A stretch of DNA of 63,627 nucleotides, counting the filler, from Sphacelaria rigidula (lineage: Eukaryota): NCBI GenBank assembly GCA_964200075.2. It is 11 parts of 11 records of this genome, joined end to end, with 100 filler letters (N's around TTAATTAATTAA, not from the genome) between each part and the next. Parts side by side here need not be neighbours in the genome. Positions count along the whole stretch, not along the records: positions 34,763 to 40,455 come from CAXNAA020025201.1; 10 more parts are not named here. One strand, written 5' to 3'. The notes beneath the pieces are model-generated. The model searched no databases and was not told the origin of the DNA. It worked only from the letters and a program-made list of their open reading frames with translations. A program made the position numbers and the translations under genes. Below, in pieces: positions 2,208-53,200 of this stretch (its first letter is position 1; each line of letters starts with the position of its first letter).

Positions 2208-5200
2208 TCAAAGCTTCAAACTATACTTTGCCTGCAAACGTGCTCGCACCTTTTTACTCAGTCCCAACTTACGCAGCTCAGATTTTACAAATTGCGAGGG
2301 ACCGTCCAAAATATTTTCCAGAGGCTCCCACGAGTTTTCATCTTTGCCAAATCGGACCCACTTCACTTGTACATTAAATCTATATCCTGCTTCGTCCTCA
2401 GATATATCGGCAATAGCCGCCATCTCAAACTCGCCTTGTGCAAAAGCATACTGGAACACCTCCTTAACATCAGCCGTAGTCTGCAGCTCCTTTTCCGAAT
2501 AAAATCAAAGGCGGGCGACATGCACATCTTGTACTTCGCCATTCACAATGTTCTGTGCCTCGTACACATGTTGTTGTTCCGCCATCACAATCCGCCAAGG
2601 CCCCGTCCACGTACTCACAACCTTCGGCGTAGGTCCCGAACACCTCACCCTCGCCGCCAGCACGTAATCGCCCACCACAAAGTTAGTAAGCTTTCCTTTA
2701 CTAGCCACACGTCTCTGTAGATCGCGATTCTTGTCGACACGCTGCGCCACCTTCTTGTGAAGCTCTTGCTGAGCCTCAACGATTGACGTCACCTGTCGCC
2801 TCAAAGCGTCTTCGTCAAGCACATCGACGCTCCATTCGCCCCCAGTTGAAGATGACAGAGTAGAGAAACTGGAGTCATCCTACGATAGGGGGGGGGTATT
2901 TGGTTGCACGAAAAAAGAGGCTCATAAGTGTGTCAGACACCCTTCCACACTTGCGTTGCGCTTGTATTTGGTTCCAAACGGTGTCAGGCAGTATGGATGA
3001 GCGTTATTGATCCACAACAAGCTTGTTCGAACAACTGTTGCTGTTCTCAACGACAATCTGGCTCGAAATTTCGAGCAACAAATGGCCCAAAATACCCCCC
3101 CCCCTATCGTAGGATGACTCACTGGTGCGCGGTGCCCGGCCAAACATAACATGGTATGGCGTGCTAGCATAACGCTCTCGGAAAGCAGTGCTTAACGCAC
3201 ACTGCTACTGCAGGTACCAAACTCATCCATTCACGAACATCACGCCTTTCCTCTTGCAAAATTGCCTTCAAGGTACGAACAATCTCACGCATCATTCGCT
3301 CACAAGTGCCATTAGACCATGGCGAGTTAGCAACCGCGAATCGGCGATCCATCTTCAGCGCCTTCTCAAGCGCTCTCATTACACGATTCTTGAAATGCGA
3401 TGCCGTATCGCTGACCCATACCTCTGGCGACCCCAGCGTTTTGCACCATGTCAACAGATGCTTCACCGTCGTGGTCGCCACAACCCCTCGGAGACCAGCC
3501 CCTTTCATGTGAGCGCATACCATCAAGCGTGTTTGTAGTTCTCTCGCTGCCGGTGAGATCCACAATACATCCCTTCCTGCAACATACACGCGAAACAAAC
3601 CCTCACCGTCTTTGAAGACATACCCAACAGCGGCAGTAAACGTCTCAGCACCGTCAACCATACCTCCTAAACCCTCACGGGCTTGCTCTTGGGCTTCACG
3701 AACGGCCGCTTTCGACGGTAGCGTCTCATCAGGCTCTCCACTTGCAAAAATAGCGATAGCTCTCACGGATACCGCTGGAACGTTCACCCACCGGGACAGT
3801 AGATCTCCCCAGCAGTTACGCTCACCAGAAATATGCCTGATTGAATAATCATACTGCCCGAGTACAGTCTTCCATTGTTCAAGACGCTGGGCGGCAGCTT
3901 TCGCCCGTGTGGTCACACATGCTTCGGGATCAAAAATATAAGCGAAATTGCGATGGTCCGGATATATGGTCACTCCGCCCCACAAAAGGTACTCCGACCG
4001 ACGAAACGAACTCACGATGGCATACACTTCCTTGTACACCGTAGCCCACCGCAACTGCGCTCCTCGAAACGTCCCACTAAGAAATCTCAGGGGCTCATGA
4101 TTCATGTCCTCCACCGCTATATTGCGGTCCAATTCAGCTCTCGGTACCTGGGTCACGAAAGTATCCCAATGAAGATCCGACGCGTTTGGAAACATCATCA
4201 CCTTATAGCCCTTTTTGGGATGTGACAGAGCAACAGCATGTGCCACCAAATCTTGCGCCGCTCTCCAAGCTTGCGCACGCTCAAACGTCCACGCCGCGTC
4301 CTTGATTGTCCTGTTTGAAGCAACCCGACGCACGTTGCCCACCATATGCCCCTTGAGCAAAACACGAAGGGGCTCCACCACTTCAGCAAGGCGCGGAAGA
4401 GACGTCCGCAGCCAATTCACCGCTTGCAAAAACTGCATCAACTCGCCCGCGGTTTGAGGACGCCTCATATTCGTCAAACCGCTCAGCCGATCCCTGTCGT
4501 GAGCCACCTGTCCATCCGAGAGACCCTTTCCGCACCACGTAATTTCCGTATCATAAAACATACACTTGTGTGCAGCCGCAAAAAGACCAGCATCCTCGAG
4601 GCGGCTTAAAATCGCATTCAGCGTGCACAGCAAGTCATCTCCATTTGCCCCCCACCACAGATGTCATCTACCCATACCTTACATGGAAGTATAGTGAATA
4701 GCTTCGTCATAGTGCCCTGAAAATACCCCGTAGCGTTGAGTACTCCTTGAGGCACGCTCGTAGGCGTGAATAACCCGTCAGGGGTTGCAATAGTGAAGAT
4801 TTCTTGGGCATCTGCCGCCAACGGCATCTGTCAGTATCCCTGCAGCATGTCTAGCTTTCCAAAACAAGCAGCTCCTACCAAATCCGCCATCTCCGCTTCT
4901 TGGTTTGGCATCACAGTCGGCACTTTCTCAATCTGCTCATTAACGGCACGGTAATCACCCACCAGTCTGAAACCACCTTTTTTAGGCGGTGCAACAGCCG
5001 CGCTCGCCCATACTGCCTGCAAACTACGAAACACGAGCCCGAGCGCCACCAACGTTGCCATGCAACGTGCCAACCATGCCATCTTAACTGGAGAGTATGC
5101 TCGCGGCCTAGCCTTAACTGCCGTAGCACCAGGTTTGAATGTCACCCTGAGAGGGTCGGCACGAGCGGGCGGATCACCACGTAGCGCTCGCCGAAAAGCA

Positions 5201-13100: not shown

Positions 13101-14039
13101 AGTATTAGACCTGTTTACAGCTGATGGATGGCAGGCAGGTCTGCGGGTCTGATCGATGAATTCTGTAGGTGCTTCATCATGATGATTTGGAGACACTGCT
13201 CACCCGGTGCGAGGAGGACCGGATAGGCTTGCTTGTCTCCGGTATAATGAACAGCTAGGAATCATTGCAGTTGCTCAAATCTACGAGCCCATGATGGATC
13301 AACCCCTCGTAGCTAACTGGTGTTGACTGGCGTTGAGTGACCTAATTTTACAGCTCTGATTCGAAGGCGGGATAATTGAAGTGAAGAATTACAAAACAGC
13401 TGCTGTTTGTCGAGAGAGGGATGCTATGTTATGCTACAATGAAGGGATGAGAGACATGACAGATAATCAAATGCTCGGAGATGTAATCTAGATTTTGCAT
13501 TATGTGACAGAGATGGACAAGTGTTGCATCGGCGTAGATCTCGCATGAGTGTCTAGTATTGGATCGAGTCTTCGCCACTACACAGCGGTATGTCAGAGAT
13601 TGTATTCGTTGCTGTTGTTGATTCTTCGGCTGTTGACATACCGCTGCCTGCTACGCTTTGCAGTACTGTCCTCGTTGCGTTTCACCATTCCACCAGTACC
13701 AAGGCCAAGGGGGTGCATCGGTTTCGTATTACTGTTTATACGGCTGACGTATCACTGAAACGTTGCTTGAACGCCGAAGTGGACTTCATCGTTGCCGCTT
13801 TTGATTCTCTTGCGAGACGTTTTGCTTTTTTTTTCATTATAAATTCTCCCGGGACTTATACCTCAACAGCAACACATACTGGGAATTCGCGTGCATATGC
13901 TGCCGTGATGTAAACGTGACTCGAATACGTTCGTATGATCATGACTACAGAGGATAACCTTCGACGAGATATATTCCTCCAAGTCCAAATCTTGGACACT
14001 GCAACTGTTGGTACGGCACTGCTCAGCTGTTCTTCTCAC

Positions 14040-14482
14040 CTCTTCCGTGGAGCCCGCCACTCCTGCCCCCCCTCCACCACCACCCTTGCCCCCCTTCTCC
14101 GCTGCCGCCGCTCCGCCGCCACCACCCCTCTCATTCCTCACAGGTCTAGCCCTACCAACAAGCGAAAGCTTATGCCGCTCTTCTGTTCGGGGCGGTGGAC
14201 TGGGCAAGCTAGGAAACGCCTCGGATGATGAGCCGCCGGTAGTCGCACCGCCCCCCCACCCACCACCACCCCCACGAGCGGACAAAGCAGCACTAGCCCC
14301 GCCGCTTCCAGTTGTGTCGCCTCGAGAAGGTCCGCCGCATGCACCAGAGGGAACAAAGGGTTCGGAAGTGGCCGACAACCCCGATACGGGGACGCCGGGG
14401 TTTCGTCCCCGGTTTGCAGGCACTGGTACCACGATGCCTCCGGCAAGATCGTGGTCTGGGTCAGGTGCGGCCATGGACTCAC
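14040..14482 (-). CDS. Internal Gly/Pro/Ser-rich exon of an unidentified protein (PAM2-like motif)
   Basis: GC-rich open frame within ORF 13863-14555, with acceptor GAAGCAG| at 14483 and donor GAG|GTGAGA at 14040. Contains LSATSEPFVPS (PAM2-like) and EAFPSL. Confidence 0.6.
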
Positions 14483-14560
14483 CTGCTTCGATGGGACGGA
14501 AAATGATGAACTTCATAGCGTGGGCTAAAACAGTGAATACGCTAAGCAAACTCAAGTGTT

Positions 14561-14670
14561 TTGGAACTCATTGACGATTTTCGTCTTTGTGAATTGGCAT
14601 AATTTTGACTCGAAAATGACTGAAAATGATGCCAATTTACAGAAACAAAAATCGTCAATGAGTTCCTAAA
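14561..14670. repeat. ~110-bp palindromic (hairpin) element
   Basis: GGAACTCATTGACGATTTT...AATTGGCAT pairs with ATGCCAATT...AAAATCGTCAATGAGTTCC. Confidence 0.75.
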
Positions 14671-34662: not shown

Positions 34663-35684
34663 NNNNNNNNNNNNNNNNNNNNNNNNNNNNNNNNNNNNNN
34701 NNNNNNTTAATTAATTAANNNNNNNNNNNNNNNNNNNNNNNNNNNNNNNNNNNNNNNNNNNNGCAGGGGTACGTGGGATGAGAAGTAACCCAGCTACCGC
34801 ACGGGCGTGGTACGAAGTAGATTGATAGTAGATATCACAGATACTCCGTACTAGCCAAGTTGCTGCCTCTTTTCTTGGGCCGCTGCCGTCAGCCAGCCCG
34901 AACTGGCCTCAGCGCTCGGGCCGAGGCCGGAGGAGGAAAAGGGTTATCGTACCGTGGTATATTTCTGGAGGTGCGACGCCTTGATGTGCTGTCGGGGCTA
35001 CATCTATCGGTTACAGGTCCGCACACAGACAGATGGGACTATGTACTATCCTCTACTGTACCGTGCCCCAGCGTGCTTACTGTATTGTACGGAATGTACC
35101 GGATTTGAGCCGTGCTGACTGCAACCTTTTGTTGGAGTGCTTGATGTTTTTGATACGCACCATTTTCTAGTAACCAACTAGAAGATCCCATTTTGTCGTT
35201 CTCCAGGCTTGAGAGAGTTGAATAGTCGTGTGTGCACCCCGGAATGCACCTCTGAACAAAGATGAAACTTGAGCATGAGTTGAAGTAGAATAGGTGAACT
35301 AAGCCTTTTACCCTCGACGCTCCCCACAAGCAAGCCGCGATTTTGTGTCGGAAGGCGAATGAATAATCGTAGCATGAATACCTGAAAATACGGAACATGA
35401 AATAAATTAGTAACACATACAAAAATGTGCAGTGCGCCACATATGCAGGTACGCATGTAGTGTGTGTAGGCCACCGGCTGGATATTGACGGGAGAATTAT
35501 TTATGCGTTCAAACATTGTCCTCTCCTTCTCTGGGAACGCTGCCCGTTAACGACGCGTGTCCAGGTGGCTCGTGGTACGGCAAGACTCAGTTGCCCCTCG
35601 TGGTTGGCTGGTTGGAAGCGGGCATCATATCAGTCGCCGGATTGGTCTACGCTAGATTTTTGTTGCTGAGCAATTTTGTAGAGG

Positions 35685-38600
35685 ATGAGTTCTCGAATTT
35701 GCGTCGATGCAGAGTGCACATCAAGATCGTCTTACGGTGTAAATGGAAGCACGAAGGCGGAATTTTGCGCCGAGCACGCCAAAGCAGGGTTGGTCAACGT
35801 GACGAGCAAAGTGTGCGGCATTGACGCCTACTCCACACATTCGTCGTACAGCGTGATGGGCAGCGGAGATTCCGAATTCTGTGCGAAGCATGTCAAGGAG
35901 GGATTGGTCAACATCAAGAGCAGAGTATGCCTCAACGACAGCTGCTCCAGCGTGCTGTCGTATGGTGTGGTAGACAGCACAAATGCGGAATTATGTGCCA
36001 AGCATGCCAGGGAGGCGATGATCAACGTCAAGAGCAAAGTGTGCAGCAACGACGGCTGCTCCACACAGCCGTCATATGGCGTGGTGGGCAGCAAGAAAGC
36101 CGAGTACTGCGCCAAGCATGCCAGAGAGGGGATGGTCAACGTCACGAGCAAAGTGTGCAGCAACGACGGCTGCTCCACACAGCCGTCATATGGCGTAGTG
36201 GGCAGCAGGAAAGCCGAGTACTGCGCTAAGCATGCCAGAGAGGGGATGGTTCACGTCAAGAACAAATGTGGCGAAGAGGGCTGCTTCACGGCGCCGTCGT
36301 ACGGCGTGGTGGGCAGCAGAGAAGCCGAGTTCTGCGCTAAGCATGCCAGAGAGGGGATGGTCCATGTCAAAAGCAAAGTATGCGGCAACGAGGGCTGCTT
36401 CACGGCGGCGTCGTAAGGCGTGGTGGGCAGCAGAGAAGCCGAGTTCTGCGCCAAGCATGCCAGAGAGGGGATGGTCGATGTCAAAAGCAAAGTATGCTGC
36501 AACGAGGGCTGCTTTACGGCGCCGTCGTACGGCGTGTTGGGCAGCAGGAAAGCCGAGTACTGCGCCAAGCATGCCGGAGAGGGGATGATCAACGTCAAGA
36601 ACAAATGTGGCGAAGAGGGTTGCTTCACGGCGCCGTCGTACGGCGTGTTGGGCAGCAGAAAAGCCGAGTTCTGCGCCAAGCATGCCAGAGAGGGGGTGGT
36701 CAACGTCAAGAGCAAAGTATGCAGCAACGGCGGCTGCTCCAGCGTGCCGTCGTACGGCGTGTTGGGCAGCAAGAAAGCCGAGTTCTGCGCCAAGCATGCC
36801 AGAGAGGGAATGGTTCACGTCAGAAGTAAAGTGTGCAGCCACGACGGCTGCTTCACACAGCCGTCGTACGGCGTGTTGGGCAGCAAGAAAGCCGAGTTCT
36901 GCGCCAAGCATGCCAGAGAGGGAATGGTTCACGTCAGAAGTAAAGTGTGCAGCCACGACGGCTGCTTCACACAGCCGTCGTACGGCGTGGTGGGCAGCAA
37001 GAAAGCCGAGTTCTGCGCCAAGCATGCCAGAGAGGGGATGGTCAACGTCAGAAGTAAAGTGTGCAGCAACGACGGCTGCTTCACGGCGCCGTCGTACGGC
37101 GTGGTGGGCAGCAGGAAAGCCGAGTTCTGCGCCAAGCATGCCAGAGGGGGGATGGTCAACGTTAGGAACAAATGTGGCGAAGAGGGCTGCTTCACGGCGC
37201 CGTCGTACGGCGTGGTGGGCAGCAGAGAAGCCGAGTTCTGCGCCAAGCATGCCAGAGAGGGGATGGTCCATGTCAAAAGCAAAGTATGCTGCAACGAGGG
37301 CTGCTTCACGGCGGCGTCGTACGGCGTGGTGGGCAGCAGGAAAGCCGAGTTCTGCGCCAAGCATGCCACAGGGGGGATGGTCAACGTTAGGAACAAATGT
37401 GGCGAAGAGGGCTGCTTCACGGCGCCGTCGTACAGCGTGATGGGCAGCAGAAAGGCCGAGTTCTGCGCCAAGCATGCCAGAAAGGGGATGGTCAACGTCG
37501 AGAACAAATGTGGCGAAGAGGGTTGCTTCACGGCGCCGTCGTACGGCGTGGTGGGCAGCAGAAAGGCCGAGTTCTGCGCCAAGCATGCCAAAAAGGCGAT
37601 GGTCAACGTCAAGAGAAAATTGTGCACGAAGGACGGCTGCTACACACAGCCGTCGTACGGCGTAGTGGGCAGCGGGAAAGCCGAGTTCTGCGCTAAGCAT
37701 GCCAGAGAGGGGATGGTCGATGTCGAATGCAAAGTATGCTGCAACGAGGGCTGCTTTACGCCGGCGTCGTACGGTGTGGTGGGCAGCAGGAAAGCCGAGT
37801 CCTGTGCCAAGCATGCCACAGAGGGGATGGTCAACGTCTCGAGCAAAGTGTGCACGAAGGACGGCTGCTACACACAGCCGTCGTACGGCGTGGTGGGCAG
37901 CAGGAAAGCCGAGTTCTGTGTCAAGCATGCCAGAGAGGGGATGGTCCATGTCAAAAGCAAAGTATGCTGCAACGAGGGCTGCTTCACGGCGGCGTCGTAC
38001 GGCGTGGTGGGCAACAGAGAAGCCGAGTTCTGCGCCAAGCATGCCAGAGAGGGGATGGTCCATGTCAAAAGCAAGGTATGCTGCAACGAGGGCTGCTTTA
38101 CGCCGGCGTCGTACGGCGTGGTGGGCAGCAGGAAAGCCGAGTTCTGTGTCAAGCATGCCACAGAGGGGATGGCCAACGTCAAGAGCAAAGTGTGCAGCAA
38201 CGGGGGCTGCTCCAGCATGCTGTCGTACGGCGTAGTGGGCAGCAGAGAAGCCGAGTTCTGCGCCAAGCATGCCAGAGAGGGGATGGCCGTCGTCAAAACC
38301 AAAGTATACGGCAACGCGGGCTGCTCCAGCGTGCCGTCGTACGGCGTGGTGGGCAGCGGAGAAGCCGAATTCCGCGTCAGGCATGCCAGAGAGGGGATGG
38401 TTAAGATGAAGAGCAGGGTGTGTGGCACTGACGCCTACTCTACGGTGCAGTCGTACGGCGTGGTAGGCAGTAGAAAGGCCGAAGTGCGGGCCAAGCGTGC
38501 GAGGGAGGGGATGACCGATGTCAGGGACAAATTATGCGGTAACGACGGCTGCTCAAGAGTGCCGTCGTACGCCGCGGTGGGCAGCAGAGAGGACGAATTC

Positions 38601-39125
38601 TGCGCCAAGCATGCCAGAGTAGGGATGGTTGACGTTGAAAACAAAGTGTGCGGCAGCGACGGCTGCTCCAGCGTGCTGTCGTACGGTGTGGTAGGCAGTG
38701 CGAAAGTTGAATTCTGCTCTGACCGTCCAAGCAACTGCGCTGAATCTCTCCGGCGTGTACTTCCCAATAGTGCTACACTGAGCGTTGGGACACCACCGCC
38801 GGGGTTGGCACAATCCGCCGCCATGGTCCATGGAGATGTTGAAGAGATGAACGTCGGTGCCAAGGCGGAGCTGAAAGTCACCTCTGCTTCAGGTGTTGTA
38901 CATAGGAGGAGAGTTGCGGGGAGAATGTGGGCGGGAGCAGCGGCAGCTGCTGGTGTGTGCAGCGTGGGTGGGTCTAGCATTTCCATCGCTAGAAGTAGAA
39001 GGGCAAAGCGACCTCGTACGATGTCGGTGGCGTCGAGGCAGGCCGTTCCAGCGGATGCTATGGACACTAAACGGGATGGAGAAAGCGTTAAATTGGCGTT
39101 GGCAATTTCGAAAAGTTTTTCCTAG
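35685..39125 (+). CDS. EsV-1-7 cysteine-rich repeat protein (27 tandem repeats); one in-frame TAA at 36414-36416, possible pseudogene
   Basis: ORFs 35685-36416 and 36420-39125 share one frame. Consensus C-x3-GCFTxPSYGVVGSRKAEFCAKHAREGMVNVKSKV (C-x4-C-x16-C-x2-H; 38 or 37 aa) is the EsV-1-7 motif known from the Ectocarpus IMM family. No introns are evident. The C-terminal tail carries an NLS-like RSRRAKRPR. Confidence 0.9.
35700..38720 (+). repeat. Coding tandem repeat, 114/111-bp units
   Basis: 26 full units plus one truncated unit. Central units are nearly identical at the DNA level (GCCGAGTTCTGCGCCAAGCATGCCAGAGAGGGGATGGTC) and terminal units are diverged. Confidence 0.97.
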
Positions 39126-41836
39126 CATTGCGTTTTGTCGCGATGGGGTTCTTTCCCGGAGCAACCCGGCAAGGGTTGCCCGACAGGTCTTCTGTTGGAA
39201 CTGTTACTATCGGCACATGCGCCCGGACCTTATGTTGCTCTTATGTCTGCAGAAACAGGCCGAACTACAGAGAGAATAGCGTTCCACATATCATCCCTCG
39301 AGCAGTGTACACCAATGTCTTCCGGGATTGATGTAGATCTGGTGTTCGTGCCTGCGTTGTCGGCCTACTTTGTTTTCCACCACGTGTAGTCGGCGGAAGT
39401 CCGCAAAGGTAATTCTCATGGAGGCCTGGCCAAAACCCTTTTTTTTACGGTTCATCGACTGCACCGTCGATCACGTGTCCCCTAGAGAGCGGCGTATCTT
39501 GGGGGGTGGGAAGGTCATATTTTTCGTATCAGCGGTTGGGCCGTTGGTCATGCCTTCAACCCATGACGGGGCGAGTGAGAGGGGGCATACGCGAAATCCG
39601 AACGGCGTCTGTACTGCACATGTTCGTGAAACCAGGTACGGAGTTTTTGTTCGGAACGGGGGAATTGTCGTGATCTACATCACTATGGTCGAATCGTCAG
39701 AGACAGCCGTCACCGACCTGAAAGCCCGTGATCTGACAGGAACTTTGGTGCGGAAAGATTTTGAATCAACGTTGTGTACATTTTTGGCGGTATCTCATGG
39801 ACGGCGTCACCGATGCCACTCGTTTGCCGGACATGGCTGGAATTTGTATTAAAACAAGGATTTCATGATGTTGAGAGTAGAGCGTTGATAGAGAGTTGAT
39901 TGATTGATCGATTGTCGCACTTCAACTGAGAGTGAGTTATAACATTCGCTTCAACTCGACCATTTTTTTACTCCATGTATTCTTTTGTTCGCCGGTAACA
40001 CTGGCGTGTGCCTGCAGCTACCCGTCGATGCCCTACTCAGGGATATCAAGGGCTTCAGTGATAAACTACAAAAAGGGTAGCGGGCCTTGTGGAGAGTCGT
40101 TTCGGAACTGAAACAATCCATTCTTGGATTGGCCGCTCCTTGTCAATGCTATCTTCCACTCTCAATCTCACGGAAACATCGTTTGAAGCGATTCCAATTT
40201 TCAAATTGGTTGTTGTCTCAGGCTATTCCAGATTCGGCATTACATATGTGTGACAGAGAACACTCTCGTTATTTTCGGAAAACTTTTTAAAACGAGCAGA
40301 ACTTGAAAAAAACTGCTAAGCATGACCCCATTCCAATTTTCAAATTGGTTGTTGTCTCAGGCTATTCCAGATTCGGCTATATACAACAAATTGTGCGAAT
40401 TGAGGTTTAACTTCGAGATGAGGTTCAAGCCTAAAACAGTGCTTACCCCACATTTNNNNNNNNNNNNNNNNNNNNNNNNNNNNNNNNNNNNNNNNNNNNT
40501 TAATTAATTAANNNNNNNNNNNNNNNNNNNNNNNNNNNNNNNNNNNNNNNNNNNNGAACTGAAACGATTCATTCACTGATTGACCGCTTTTCACTCTCAA
40601 TCGTATCATCTACTCTCAATCTCACGAAAACACTGTTATATATCAAAAGGTAGCTCGGAGTCCAGAATAGATGGGATGGCAAGACACGACTACACGCACT
40701 ACAGCACGAAATCTATCGTCTAATACAGTATACGCAATCGTGTATACTTTATGCAGCACACTTTTTGACAGTGTTATCTCTTGTCCAGGTTGTGCTAATA
40801 TTCAACATCCGCGGTACCCGCACCGCCGACCACAGACCGCCTCGCCGATATTTCGCACTGGTCGGGATCTTGAGGGAACTGGTGGTCGGGTATCGTTTGT
40901 CGGTATGGCGTAGGCTTGAAGATCTGTTCCGTCACTGTCCCAATTAAGGGTGTACTACTCCGTCATTTTACCGAACTTTCTTCGACCAAAGGTGACAACC
41001 CCAGTCATTGCAGCAGCGCGCTGGAGGGGGAGAATTAGGAGTACTCACCAGGAGAAAAACAGTGGAAATAAGTAGAAAAAAGAAGAGGAAACGGGTTTGA
41101 ATTTGTGCCAGCCTGCTCAGTTTCGTGCGCTCGGAGAAAATGCGAATTCCTTCCCAACCTCCACCCTCGCGAACGAACCCCACGGGTAGCGCGGAAGTTT
41201 CCAAACTCTGCATTACCTACGGTGCCTACGTCACATCTACACAGTCTACAATGCACGGTTGCAAGAAGTCAACAAACTGACCTGCATGCATGTGCCATAC
41301 CCGCCAAAAGCGGATCACATCCCATCGGGGCAAGGGATGAGGGAAGGGGCGAAGCTGCGCACGCGAAGACTCGATGTGATTAAAAAAAAAGCACTTGCAG
41401 AAATAAAAATAGAAAATATCCTGATGGGAAAATAATGGTACCGGGTCAAAGAAATCTCACTGAGTTTTGTTGTTTTCTTCCTCCTCTCATTTCGCTTCCC
41501 CCTCCCCGGACGACGTGCCGGGATCGCCTTTTCGATCGGTACGAAACCGAAAGTGCTCCCCGCCCTTGATGAACTATAAACCATTTTTTCACAGAAAGCT
41601 CGCCGAGCGAAAATCCCAAGTCGTCCGTGTTTCGCGCGGAACTATCATCCAACACCCTTCGATTGCTGTGCCCTTCGAATGCAGTCGAGAATCGCCGATG
41701 AAACATTTACTCTCTAGGAATGGACCAATGACACACATGGAACAAATCTGGAGAACCGAAGGCCAAAATCTTTCGTCACTCGGAGAGAACCAAGACCCCA
41801 ACACCTACGCTCCCGTACTAGTCATGGACCGAAATC

Positions 41837-50291: not shown

Positions 50292-53200
50292 CTGTACCAT
50301 TCGTTGGGGCAACAGAAGATCGAGCTCGATGGCTACGTGCACGCGATGGGTGTCCCTCACAGTACCACACTTACGCATTCACCTTTCAGAGCAACACAGC
50401 GAAGTCTCGTTTCTCTTCCATAATAAGGAGGCGGTATTAGAGAGTTTCGCAAGATTTGTTTTAATCATAGAGTCAGAGTACAGAGTGGACGCTTTGAAAC
50501 TTCACGGTTGTTGTTGTCGTTGTTGTTGTCTTCACATTAAATCACGGTGGACGTTAAAAACGTTCACGGCGTTTTTTATCATAGAGTCGGAGTGCAGAGT
50601 AGAAGCTTCGAAACTTCACGGTGGACGTTAAAAACGTTCATAGCGGAAGCTGATGTGACGTGGCGGTGATTGGCCGCAGTTTTTTGTTTTGTGATGTGAC
50701 GTGATCTTTTTTGTCGCAGTGATTGGCCGCAGGTTGCCCCGCCTAATGTACGATCAACAGGCGTCCAACACTGACTGTACCGTGCACTGCGGCCACCGTA
50801 CGCACCATACACTATGCTTTTTCACTGCACCTGCAGTACTTAAATCCACTACAGCGCACTACAGGACAATGTAGTGATGTAGTGCTATAGTTCTGTGCAG
50901 CGAGAAGTACAGTGCAGTACAAAGAGTAGTGAGATACAGAGCCCCACAACAGTACATTGCGATGCTGTGAACTATTATACGGTACAGCGATACGGTACGT
51001 CAGTTGTACGAACATTATTAGTTCAGACAGTACGGTACGCAGCACTTTCAAACAGCAGACCTCCGCCGCATTGCGATGATTATCCCACATGCCACCCATA
51101 AAAGTGGTGCAAGACGTTAATAACTTATGATCTCTCACGAGATAGAAATACAGCCAGGTGTAGTACTGCTTGGGCGCTGTAGACTACGAATCGTTCCCAC
51201 CGTCTTCTTTCAGCTGAAGCTGGCAAGAATGAGGAATTGCACCCAGCGCAACGTGTACCTGTCGAGCATTTGCATTTTCACGCAACACAACCAAGCGGAT
51301 TGCTGATACCATGGCGGCGTGAGGGAGGTCTTCTGATTGCGATGCCAAGCTTTTCTACTTCGTGAATGGCCCATTGTAATGAGTATGACAGTTTTGATTA
51401 ATGATGAATGTCCCACTTCGCTCGTTAGGGTGTATTGACTTTGGACTGGACGTGACCATGGGTGGTGAAGGTGGGCGTGGTTCTTTTCCATTCCGCTAAA
51501 CTATGAGGAGGAACAACGGTTTTCAAAGTGAAGGGATGTACACGGGACTCTCACTCTGAAAACATCGCCCTGGAAAAAACTTCATAGCAGAAAGTAGTGC
51601 ACCGTTACCGGCTATTTTTCCTTCCACTCTGACTTTGAGAGTTTGAAAAAACCTTTCCCGCAACTCTCAATTCTGGAAGGTTTTCTTCGAGACCAGGCGC
51701 ACCCCCGTGTATGAGTTCAACCCCTGGCTTTTGAATGACATTTTCAGGGGGGTGCGAACCAATCGGGCACGCAACCAGCACCTGCTCTGCCACTCGTGTC
51801 GTTAATCTCCGCCCGGGACAAACGCAAAAAAACATAGCTAAGCACCACCACACGTGGACAGATAGCACCCTGTAGGACACCACTACATGGTTCAGCAACC
51901 CTGTATAGCATTTGCCAACCTTAGTATCTCTACCGGCATTTTGTTTAGTGTTTTCTCGATGCACTCACTGTAAAACAGCCGATCATCTATGTTGAGGATG
52001 GTGCTTTTCATTGAGGATGAGAACCCGGAGGATTAAAATCTNNNNNNNNNNNNNNNNNNNNNNNNNNNNNNNNNNNNNNNNNNNNTTAATTAATTAANNN
52101 NNNNNNNNNNNNNNNNNNNNNNNNNNNNNNNNNNNNNNNNNATGTCAATAACCGAAATGTTGGGGTCCTACGGGAAAATCCAATTTCGGGGAATTTCGGC
52201 GATCCGATTCGGGAAAAAATGAGATGTTGTGCTATATTTTATCGGAGAAATCGGTAAAGTCAGTCTTGATGAACCAACGATGTATACTACTACGTGGCTG
52301 GAGAAACCTGCTCTCCCATTTTTTGGGGAAAAAATACACTTTCTACGATTATAGCCCCCCGCCCAAAAGTGCATGGTTTTGGGAGGCAAAATCTTCACGT
52401 AAATCGAAATGGGAGAAGCCGAGCACAACGAGNNNNNNNNNNACAACGAGCAGCTGGGAATTCTCACGACTGGGTTCGTTCTAGCCAGTATTGCCAATAT
52501 GAGGCGCTTCATGCAGCCTGAACCCAAGCATCAGGCGCTGTATGCTCATCTTTTTCGTGAGACTTTTGGCTGGTTTTGGGCGGCGGCTATCCGTTATCGT
52601 AGAAAGTGTCAAAAATAGAAAGTGTCCGAAAATGTTCGACTTTCCGTCTGAAGAATAACGCCCGTTAACAACGCCCGTTAGCTACAGGATATACAACCGG
52701 TTTGATGGGGTGATCTTTTCCTTCCCCCATAAGGTGTGGCGAGGTGTCCAGGAAACTCCACAGCTCGACCACCTCACTGACTATTTTTTTCATCATCATC
52801 ATCACGTGTCAGCGCGACCTTTCTGACTCGTGGTCAACTTGTACCAAAATCTCGCCAAGAGGATGAGCAGAAAAAAAGTCCTTGCTCCGACCTTAGGAAC
52901 ATATACACACTTTCAACACACCAAGACGTGAGCCAAATTCATTGTCGGAGCTTTGATCACGCTTGACACCTGATTTACTTGGGTCGACATTAGCCCCCCC
53001 TGCTCCGTGCCCGAGGATCCGCAGGAGTATCCATCGTTCGTTTTCCTCGAAATCCATCTGCTAATACTCGTATTATAGGACATCCGGACGTTCGGATATC
53101 CGGATATCCGTCACTTTTTCCAATCTGCGGATCGATCCGGAAAAGACTGCCGGAAATCCGAAATCCGCTGCATTTGAAAAATTCAAACGGAGCACATCAC

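Follow-up and report, generated by a model that had tools for sequence, protein, structure and literature searches.

A 27-unit EsV-1-7 cysteine-repeat array in Sphacelaria rigidula with a uniform half-unit, recently duplicated cassettes and an in-frame stop codon

Anatomy of the array and its reading frame

We analysed a 63,627-nt stretch of DNA from the brown alga Sphacelaria rigidula (assembly GCA_964200075.2), here called the window, which joins parts of 11 records and along which all positions are counted. On the plus strand, a reading frame at 35685-39125 (1146 codons including one internal TAA, followed by the terminal stop) encodes a tandem array of cysteine-rich repeats. Pfam PF19114 (EsV_1_7_cys) matched six stretches in the first open reading frame (ORF) of the locus (E 1.5e-78, 258.7 bits) and 20 in the second (E 9.2e-263, 848.1 bits), and the locus is thus a member of the known EsV-1-7 cysteine-repeat family (PF19114 / IPR043822) of brown algae and giant viruses. 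Tandem Repeats Finder (TRF) reported one tandem array at 35766-38698 (period 114, 25.9 copies, 83% matches, score 3232), and splitting the translation at the first Cys of each repeat resolved 27 tandem units at 35700-38762 (Cys1 codons at 35700, 35814 and so on to 38649). The original prediction had described a 27-repeat EsV-1-7 array and proposed a Pfam check of the family; TRF, the resolved units and PF19114 all agree with that description. A profile derived from the units gave 27 matches in a six-frame translation of the window, all within the array and all in the EsV-1-7 frame, so the window has no second EsV-1-7 gene. Other frames through the array are also poor in stop codons, among them a 732-aa antisense ORF (36186-38384, minus strand) and ORFs of 100-280 aa in the two shifted plus-strand frames. 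These are by-products of a stop-free repeated unit, and the family match falls only in the EsV-1-7 frame.

The units are 38 residues long in 22 of 27 cases and 37 in the other five, and in all five of the shorter units the missing residue sits directly before a CGEEGC unit. The spacing of the predicted zinc ligands in each unit is C-x4-C-x16-C-x2-H, with all four ligands present in 23 of the 27; the losses are in unit 2 (C6Y), unit 24 (C1Y, C23R), unit 25 (C6Y, C23R, H26R) and unit 27 (H26R). Each unit divides into a variable half (the linker plus C-xxx-G-C-xxxx) and a constant half (SYGVVGS.KAEFCAKHA.EGMV). Core units 4-23 (36042-38306), unusually homogeneous for the family at a mean unit identity of 76%, keep 80/80 ligands and are 75-99% identical among themselves at the DNA level, and edge units 1-3 (35700-36041, with unit 2 lacking Cys6) and 24-27 (38307-38762, with ligands missing in 24, 25 and 27) show only 46-81% DNA identity to other units, as expected from the original prediction that degenerate units cap both ends. 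GC content is 0.55-0.60 across the gene, compared with ~0.47 around it. The array is followed by a non-repeat C-terminal tail of 120 aa (38763-39122; pI 11.2, no Pfam match), in which the previously proposed motif RSRRAKRPR, resembling a nuclear localisation signal, is present at 38991-39017.

Relatives were collected in two ways. A word-indexed protein search scored 7999 candidates, of which 126 were relatives at E<=0.001 (41-56% identity for the best), and an exhaustive HMMER search of 1.84 billion representatives gave 5921 at the same threshold; the comparisons below (P-numbers) concern the best-scoring 249 proteins, of which many come from short contigs. Among relatives with a name, the closest are brown algal, led by Sphacelaria rigidula itself (58-59% identity) and followed by Ectocarpus and Scytosiphon. 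At 27 units, the array is the longest among those compared, the runner-up in the best 249 relatives having 16 by regular expression and profile (16 was also the maximum among the 18 scanned with Pfam). In a 2026 preprint, a figure legend gives special mention to the length of Ec-24_000230. Logan contigs from several sequencing runs follow the array at 36011-36381 and then run on into different EsV-1-7-like sequence, and for this reason there are probably further paralogous arrays outside the window in the same organism.

For the tail, BLAST linked only one of the best 249 relatives, P0179, a partial 409-aa protein from another assembly, whose tail is 43-49% identical over 117 aa. The alignment (E 2e-53) spans the degenerate C-terminal units, several of the same ligand losses and the core of the basic motif (RAKRPRT here, RAKRRRT in P0179). 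Because ligand losses and tail are common to both proteins, both the unusual C-terminal units and the tail date from long ago and have been conserved, and are not products of recent decay.

The frame is interrupted in unit 7, where a TAA at 36414-36416 replaces the Tyr codon of SYG, which is TAC in 23 of the other units and TAT in three. As assembled, the ORF open from the ATG (35685-36416, with a stop two codons before the ATG and hence no open frame extending 5´) encodes 243 aa and covers units 1-6 plus 11 residues at the start of unit 7; a 901-aa remainder follows in the same frame, with its first Met at 36471. The array of the predicted 27-repeat protein is therefore real and its single open frame is not, and the copy as assembled may not make the full protein. 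We propose that this copy would carry one very recent nonsense mutation, and so represent an allele inactivated or truncated only recently, barring an error or polymorphism at that base, because there is a single stop, no frameshift across 3.4 kb and 80/80 intact core ligands.

The reading in which the TAA reflects a mistake in sequencing or assembly, or else a private polymorphism, with the species making the full 1146-residue, 27-unit protein, is unlikely in our estimate and still has to be taken seriously. The TAA departs from the consensus TAC by one C-to-A change within a highly repetitive stretch, and the sequence downstream looks selected (ligands intact, no frameshift); a separate downstream protein is also unlikely, given that the first Met comes only at 36471. 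Contigs (Logan) of four public runs were placed on the locus, three of them DNA-type runs from two studies. The DNA-type runs list differing letters at 35579, 35581, 35592 and 35805 and none at 36414-36416, in contigs that are short and in which exact cover of the stop was not seen; the bin that holds the stop (36287-36427) has depth in each DNA-type run, one of which may be the assembly's own source. No RNA run is listed for the locus; one run that may be RNA has low-depth contigs, confined to ~35723-39381, from which nothing is concluded about expression. Collectively, the contig evidence favours a real TAA. Counting against a recent nonsense mutation is that the stop could nevertheless be an assembly error, since no contig lying over base 36416 could be identified among these short Logan contigs.

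Duplication of units and constraint on the half-unit

The original prediction placed the variation in three slots, namely the loop after Cys1, the four residues between Cys2 and SYG, and the linker, and its seven loop types and all 24 strings given for the second slot in units 4-27 are letter-perfect. We defined the slots on this array as columns 2-4 and 7-10 (the knuckle) and 33, 35 and 36 (the linker), with the other 27 columns as the rest, and counted codon changes by parsimony on a unit tree that ignores the mosaic duplication history. The ten slot columns gave 24 synonymous (S) and 91 nonsynonymous (N) changes (2.40 S per codon, omega, the ratio of nonsynonymous to synonymous rates, ~0.96) and the other 27 columns S=63.7 and N=93.3 (2.36 S per codon, omega ~0.40), a difference between slots and rest that is significant on these counts (Fisher p=0.0006). 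Core pairwise Nei-Gojobori pN/pS was likewise 0.78 for slots and 0.28 for the scaffold. Variation is thus concentrated in the knuckle and linker, as in the original prediction, and this concentration is statistically real. Synonymous changes per codon are equal in slots and rest, which speaks against a hot spot of mutation as well as against homogenising conversion limited to the constant half. The difference between slots and scaffold is protein-level constraint: the constant half of the units (beta hairpin, CxxH turn and third strand in the predicted models described below) is kept uniform by selection, and the slots are relaxed, evolving at a roughly neutral rate.

These counts also bear on whether the locus is a long-dead pseudogene or a neutral, satellite-like repeat without protein-level function, which we consider very improbable. 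The in-frame stop, the four units lacking ligands and the partly open state of all six frames, including the 732-aa antisense ORF, would fit such a reading. A scaffold omega of 0.28-0.40 in the presence of plentiful synonymous variation contradicts it, as do the 80/80 intact core ligands and the lack of any frameshift in 3.4 kb; several of the edge-unit ligand losses, moreover, are common to P0179, where the tail is conserved too, and so are old and tolerated.

Positive selection on the slots is not proven, their omega being ~0.8-1.0 and not above 1. One candidate signal, a ratio of slot pN to pooled pS of ~2.0 in the eight most similar pairs of units, was rejected because the duplication register is shifted. 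In units 10/11 and 13/15 the constant halves and the next cassettes show 0 differences and the units' own cassettes seven and three, and since identical next cassettes follow near-identical constant halves, the differences in the own cassettes are recombination joints rather than substitutions.

The first two slots do not vary independently, as the original prediction of three discrete slots had implied. Although the concentration of variation that it described holds, the loop after Cys1 and the four residues that follow Cys2 share 2.08 bits of mutual information (maximum 2.62), a value that 0 of 5000 shuffles reached, and the loop is also tied to the preceding linker (p=0.0012) and not to the following one. 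Among the 20 core units there are 11 cassette types, with GEE-FTAP present in five units, five other types in two units each and the remaining five in one, and units of the same type mostly group together on the unit tree. The closest unit pairs at the DNA level are 6/14 (99%), 7/21, 11/12 and 13/15 (96%), 19/22 (95%), and 4/5 and 10/11 (94%), and blocks of three units are repeated at 87-91% identity. The reuse of cassettes is thus explained by descent, through duplication of units and blocks with shifting breakpoints, and the combination of diverged edges with a homogenised centre is the pattern expected of unequal crossing-over. In our proposed history, the 20 central units would have arisen recently via repeated unequal crossing-over of single units or blocks of two to three units, which would leave a few recurring cassette types in the core and old, partly ligand-less units at the edges. 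We hold this account of the anatomy and history of the array with considerable confidence.

The small alphabet of reusable modules, taken in the original prediction as a possible code, does not survive this analysis: it is a by-product of recent duplication and not a demonstrated recognition code. When the 18 ten-residue cassettes found here were compared with the 2104 units of the best 249 relatives, which hold 2014 distinct cassettes, none was in common, which means that there is no family-wide code of the kind found in transcription activator-like effectors (TALEs). With linked slots, reuse that tracks duplication, private cassettes and a slot omega of ~0.8-1.0, a code readable unit by unit appears improbable.

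Comparison with other arrays places the layout in the family. Across the 668 units of the first 120 relatives, the four ligand columns are near-invariant, and the next most conserved columns are P10, Y/F12, G/N13, G16, F/Y22, G30, M31, V32, N/D33, V34 and K37. The slot/rest entropy ratio exceeds 1 in 164 of 175 other arrays of at least eight units (median 1.2) and is 2.44 here (3.9 in the core), second of 176, a rank that is biased upward because the slots were defined on this array. The slots here are about as variable as in other arrays; what sets this array apart is that columns 11, 14, 17, 20, 21, 24 and 25 are frozen (0-0.7 bits, versus ~1.5-2.1 bits within-array in the 175 others). The most variable columns in those arrays are 9, 7, 11, 24, 25, 19, 15, 29, 35 and 2, so that variable positions do not form a small fixed set across the family. 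Other homogeneous arrays (P0001, P0002, P0126, P0147 and P0162) have the same layout, each with its own constant half.

Relatives, predicted structure and DNA binding

In 145 of the best 249 relatives, clustering of the non-repeat tails revealed an N-terminal EsV-1-7 array joined to a homologous C-terminal domain (median 216 aa). The shared tails contain the motifs RPD (138 of the 145), E.DE..H (144) and [FYW]NPD (141), and in an alignment of 50 of them D, E, D, E, H, R, R, N and P are invariant. The domain is preceded by two extra Cys pairs and is not recognised by Pfam above threshold. Among eight proteins scanned with Pfam, Hjc was a sub-threshold match in two and ArenaCapSnatch a sub-threshold lead in one, and a PHROG annotated as a homing endonuclease matched one of eight; the names of the predicted viral structures described below ('Endonuclease' for four matches) add some support. 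A nuclease identity of this tail is therefore weakly supported, on sequence motifs and annotation names. If the tail of the relatives is a nuclease, the array would be its obvious targeting module, a deduction from domain fusion, and it is because the same repeat is fused to a nuclease-like domain in most relatives that DNA binding comes into consideration for the array studied here. The mildly basic composition of the array (pI 8.9, net +48) and the more strongly basic tail were also counted toward it, and on this basis we give DNA binding even chances. As for the original prediction of a nucleic-acid reader, the fusions in relatives lend it indirect support and nothing does so for this gene itself. 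Separately, Pfam found EsV-1-7 repeats together with a helicase-associated (HA) domain (80.8 bits, P0037), a rhomboid domain, a methyltransferase or ankyrin repeats in P0037, P0076, P0095 and P0099, so outside brown algae the repeat is joined to varied domains.

Each 38-residue unit is probably a small zinc-binding module. An AlphaFold model of two units (106 alignment rows) had a predicted local distance difference test score (pLDDT) of 87.7 and a predicted template modelling score (pTM) of 0.58, and an AlphaFold2 model of six units (units 9-14, 60 rows) had a pLDDT of 74.8 and a pTM of 0.31. According to DSSP, the two-unit model has up to three short strands per unit (in the first, residues 12-14, 20-22 and 31-33), with a single-turn helix at CxxH in the second. 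Foldseek with the two-unit model against the BFVD gave 23 matches at E<=0.001, including EsV-1-7, EsV-1-115, the four giant-virus proteins named 'Endonuclease' and one 'DNA primase'; the match to the EsV-1-7 protein of EsV-1 (Q8QNQ2) had E 3.2e-07, TMq 0.78 and an rmsd of 1.8 A over 72 columns at 49% identity, both sides being predicted models. A sequence search of solved structures with the six-unit query gave 0 matches.

Our overall explanation is that the locus would be a single-exon host gene of the EsV-1-7 family encoding 27 small predicted zinc modules, grown by unequal crossing-over as set out above and inactivated in the assembled copy. In the knuckle loop, the linker and the four residues following Cys2, drift proceeds at an approximately neutral rate. 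The intact protein would most likely be nuclear, a DNA-binding string of zinc modules whose exposed knuckle cassettes may help to select the target, as in a C2H2 zinc-finger array and not as in a TALE. Taken whole, from family and history through selection and inactivation to mechanism, we consider this explanation probable, with some reserve.

Several observations weigh against it. The omega values are rough, as the unit tree disregards mosaic history. The nuclease signals in the tail of the relatives are weak, with Hjc and the PHROG match at the levels given above and ESM-Atlas clusters named 'Vsr endonuclease / DUF559' at 0.83-0.85, below the 0.9 level for a lead; PDB sequence searches with the shared tail (P0013 and a 50-sequence profile) returned nothing relevant. 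The array gene itself is without the nuclease-like domain, and its tail (38763-39122) has no BLAST link to the 145-member cluster. The geometry between units is not confidently predicted (six units, pTM 0.31). For both models Foldseek found no PDB match at E<=0.001, a result that is not evidence against a C2H2, GATA or treble-clef fold, and the best VIA-align scores among 48161 chains (Z 2.2) were to RING domains, which bind protein. Finally, the literature and structures searched hold no experiment or structure showing zinc or DNA binding by an EsV-1-7 repeat.

Another reading is that the units would be zinc-stabilised modules for protein-protein (or other non-nucleic-acid) interaction, similar to LIM, RING or PHD domains, forming a scaffold in which the constant half binds a repeated partner. 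In favour, there is very weak likeness of solved structures to RING (Z 2.0-2.2) and to LIM, PZP and the nsp13 zinc-binding domain (Foldseek E>0.5), the strongest constraint lies on the constant half rather than the variable loops, and the charge per unit is modest, from -1 to +5. All of these structural matches, however, fall below any meaningful threshold, and the nuclease-like fusion in 145 of the best 249 relatives, together with the viral 'Endonuclease' and 'DNA primase' names, fits DNA targeting better. We therefore assign the protein-binding reading a low probability.

The original prediction itself, a programmable TALE- or zinc-finger-like reader in which each cassette addresses an element of a DNA or RNA target and diversity is driven by positive selection, for example against transposons or viruses, is consistent with variation at fixed positions on a uniform scaffold (the entropy ratios given above, with their upward bias). 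It is also consistent with the like layout of the five other homogeneous arrays and the excess of slot variability in most others, with the family-wide conservation of the linker (G30 to V34 and K37), as in arrays docking on a regular ligand, and with the nuclease-like fusions. Against it, slot omega stays at ~0.8-1.0 and the only test giving ~2 was the shifted-register artefact; the first two slots are linked and not combinatorial; the cassettes are private to the array; and in typical arrays columns 11, 24, 25, 19 and 15 are as variable as the slots, leaving no fixed family-wide code position. The models contain no helical solenoid, the copy carries a stop codon, and nothing ties the array to transposable elements, the reverse transcriptase/RNase H fragment 31 kb away being only a neighbour. 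The proposed role against transposable elements or viruses found no support. A reader of this kind seems improbable to us.

A broader reading is speculative, and we regard it as unlikely. In it, EsV-1-7 arrays would add another class to the natural modular domains that recognise DNA, with specificity in the knuckle cassette and the preceding linker and with the spacing on DNA set by the array-specific constant half. Giant viruses would use them to aim homing-type nucleases, and brown algae would have domesticated the array without the nuclease as nuclear regulators such as IMMEDIATE UPRIGHT (IMM). The 27-unit gene would then stand at the extreme, as a reader that has grown recently and whose target is very long.

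Window context and comparison with known systems

Elsewhere in the window, the only long ORF with a Pfam match is an RT_RNaseH / RT_RNaseH_2 frame of 499 codons (3167-4663, minus strand; E 9.9e-12 and 4.3e-08). This retroelement fragment lies upstream of the array, ~31 kb away along window coordinates. A survey of long ORFs on either side of the gene, which would miss genes with introns, revealed no trace of giant-virus insertion. An ORF at 13945-14571 (plus strand) contains a proline-rich run (PPPPPPLPP...AAAAPPPP), has no Pfam match and is overlapped by an antisense ORF; it is possibly low-complexity coding sequence or a simple repeat. Paired 44-base N runs lie 12 bases apart every ~5793 bases between 5695 and 57934, with one 10-base N run at 52433-52442, and look like masking or formatting rather than biology.

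The locus is the cleanest natural display of how such an array evolves, with a selected, uniform half-unit, a free knuckle and linker, and unequal crossovers of shifting register. With a stop codon and no code shown, it is by itself an extreme family member and not a new system; together with the nuclease-like fusions in relatives, it points toward DNA binding by short arrays as the question.

Within the EsV-1-7 family, the array shares the PF19114 repeat, the C-x4-C-x16-C-x2-H spacing and the GMV[N/D]V..K linker. In published accounts, the repeat is described as one of the largest brown-algal gene families, which includes the developmental regulator IMM with five repeats, and the Ectocarpus members are described as having no other Pfam domain, as is also the case for the array gene. 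The gene studied here differs in its 27 units (16 or fewer in the best 249 relatives, five in IMM), its homogeneous core, its in-frame stop and its own basic tail. The portion of the literature searched holds no biochemical or structural study of the repeat and no established molecular function for it, consistent with the statement in the original prediction that no biochemical function was known.

A second comparison is with the fusions of arrays to the nuclease-like domain. The same repeat forms their N-terminal array, and in 118 of 128 such arrays the slots are more variable than the other columns; unlike the gene here, with its 27 units and unrelated 120-aa tail, they mostly have 8-12 units and share the C-terminal domain. 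The EDxHD family, whose prototype is I-Bth0305I, is described as combining a similar, Vsr-like catalytic motif with a DNA-binding region that is separate from it (PMC3239194).

The original prediction also likened the architecture to that of TALE, PUF and PPR proteins. The likeness extends to a unit length of 34-38 aa and to the idea of a constant scaffold with variable positions. TALE repeats are two-helix units of 33-35 residues that build a superhelix and use a di-residue code common to the family. TALE, PUF and PPR proteins are all-helical solenoids with a family-shared code, whereas the units here are predicted zinc/beta modules with short strands, the six-unit model (pTM 0.31) gives no solenoid or rigid superhelix, and no cassette here recurs in the relatives compared. 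The proposed likeness of architecture is thus contradicted by the models.

The C2H2 arrays of KRAB-ZF proteins and PRDM9 resemble the locus in their tandem small zinc modules (predicted ones here), a short, conserved basic linker and few variable positions per unit, together with growth by duplication of units and degenerate units at the edges. They differ in the ligand pattern, which is C-x2-4-C-x12-H-x3-5-H there and C-x4-C-x16-C-x2-H here, where zf-C2H2 has no Pfam match. They may differ in the fold as well, which is beta-beta-alpha with a recognition helix in C2H2 fingers and, in the model predicted here, three short strands with a one-turn CxxH helix.

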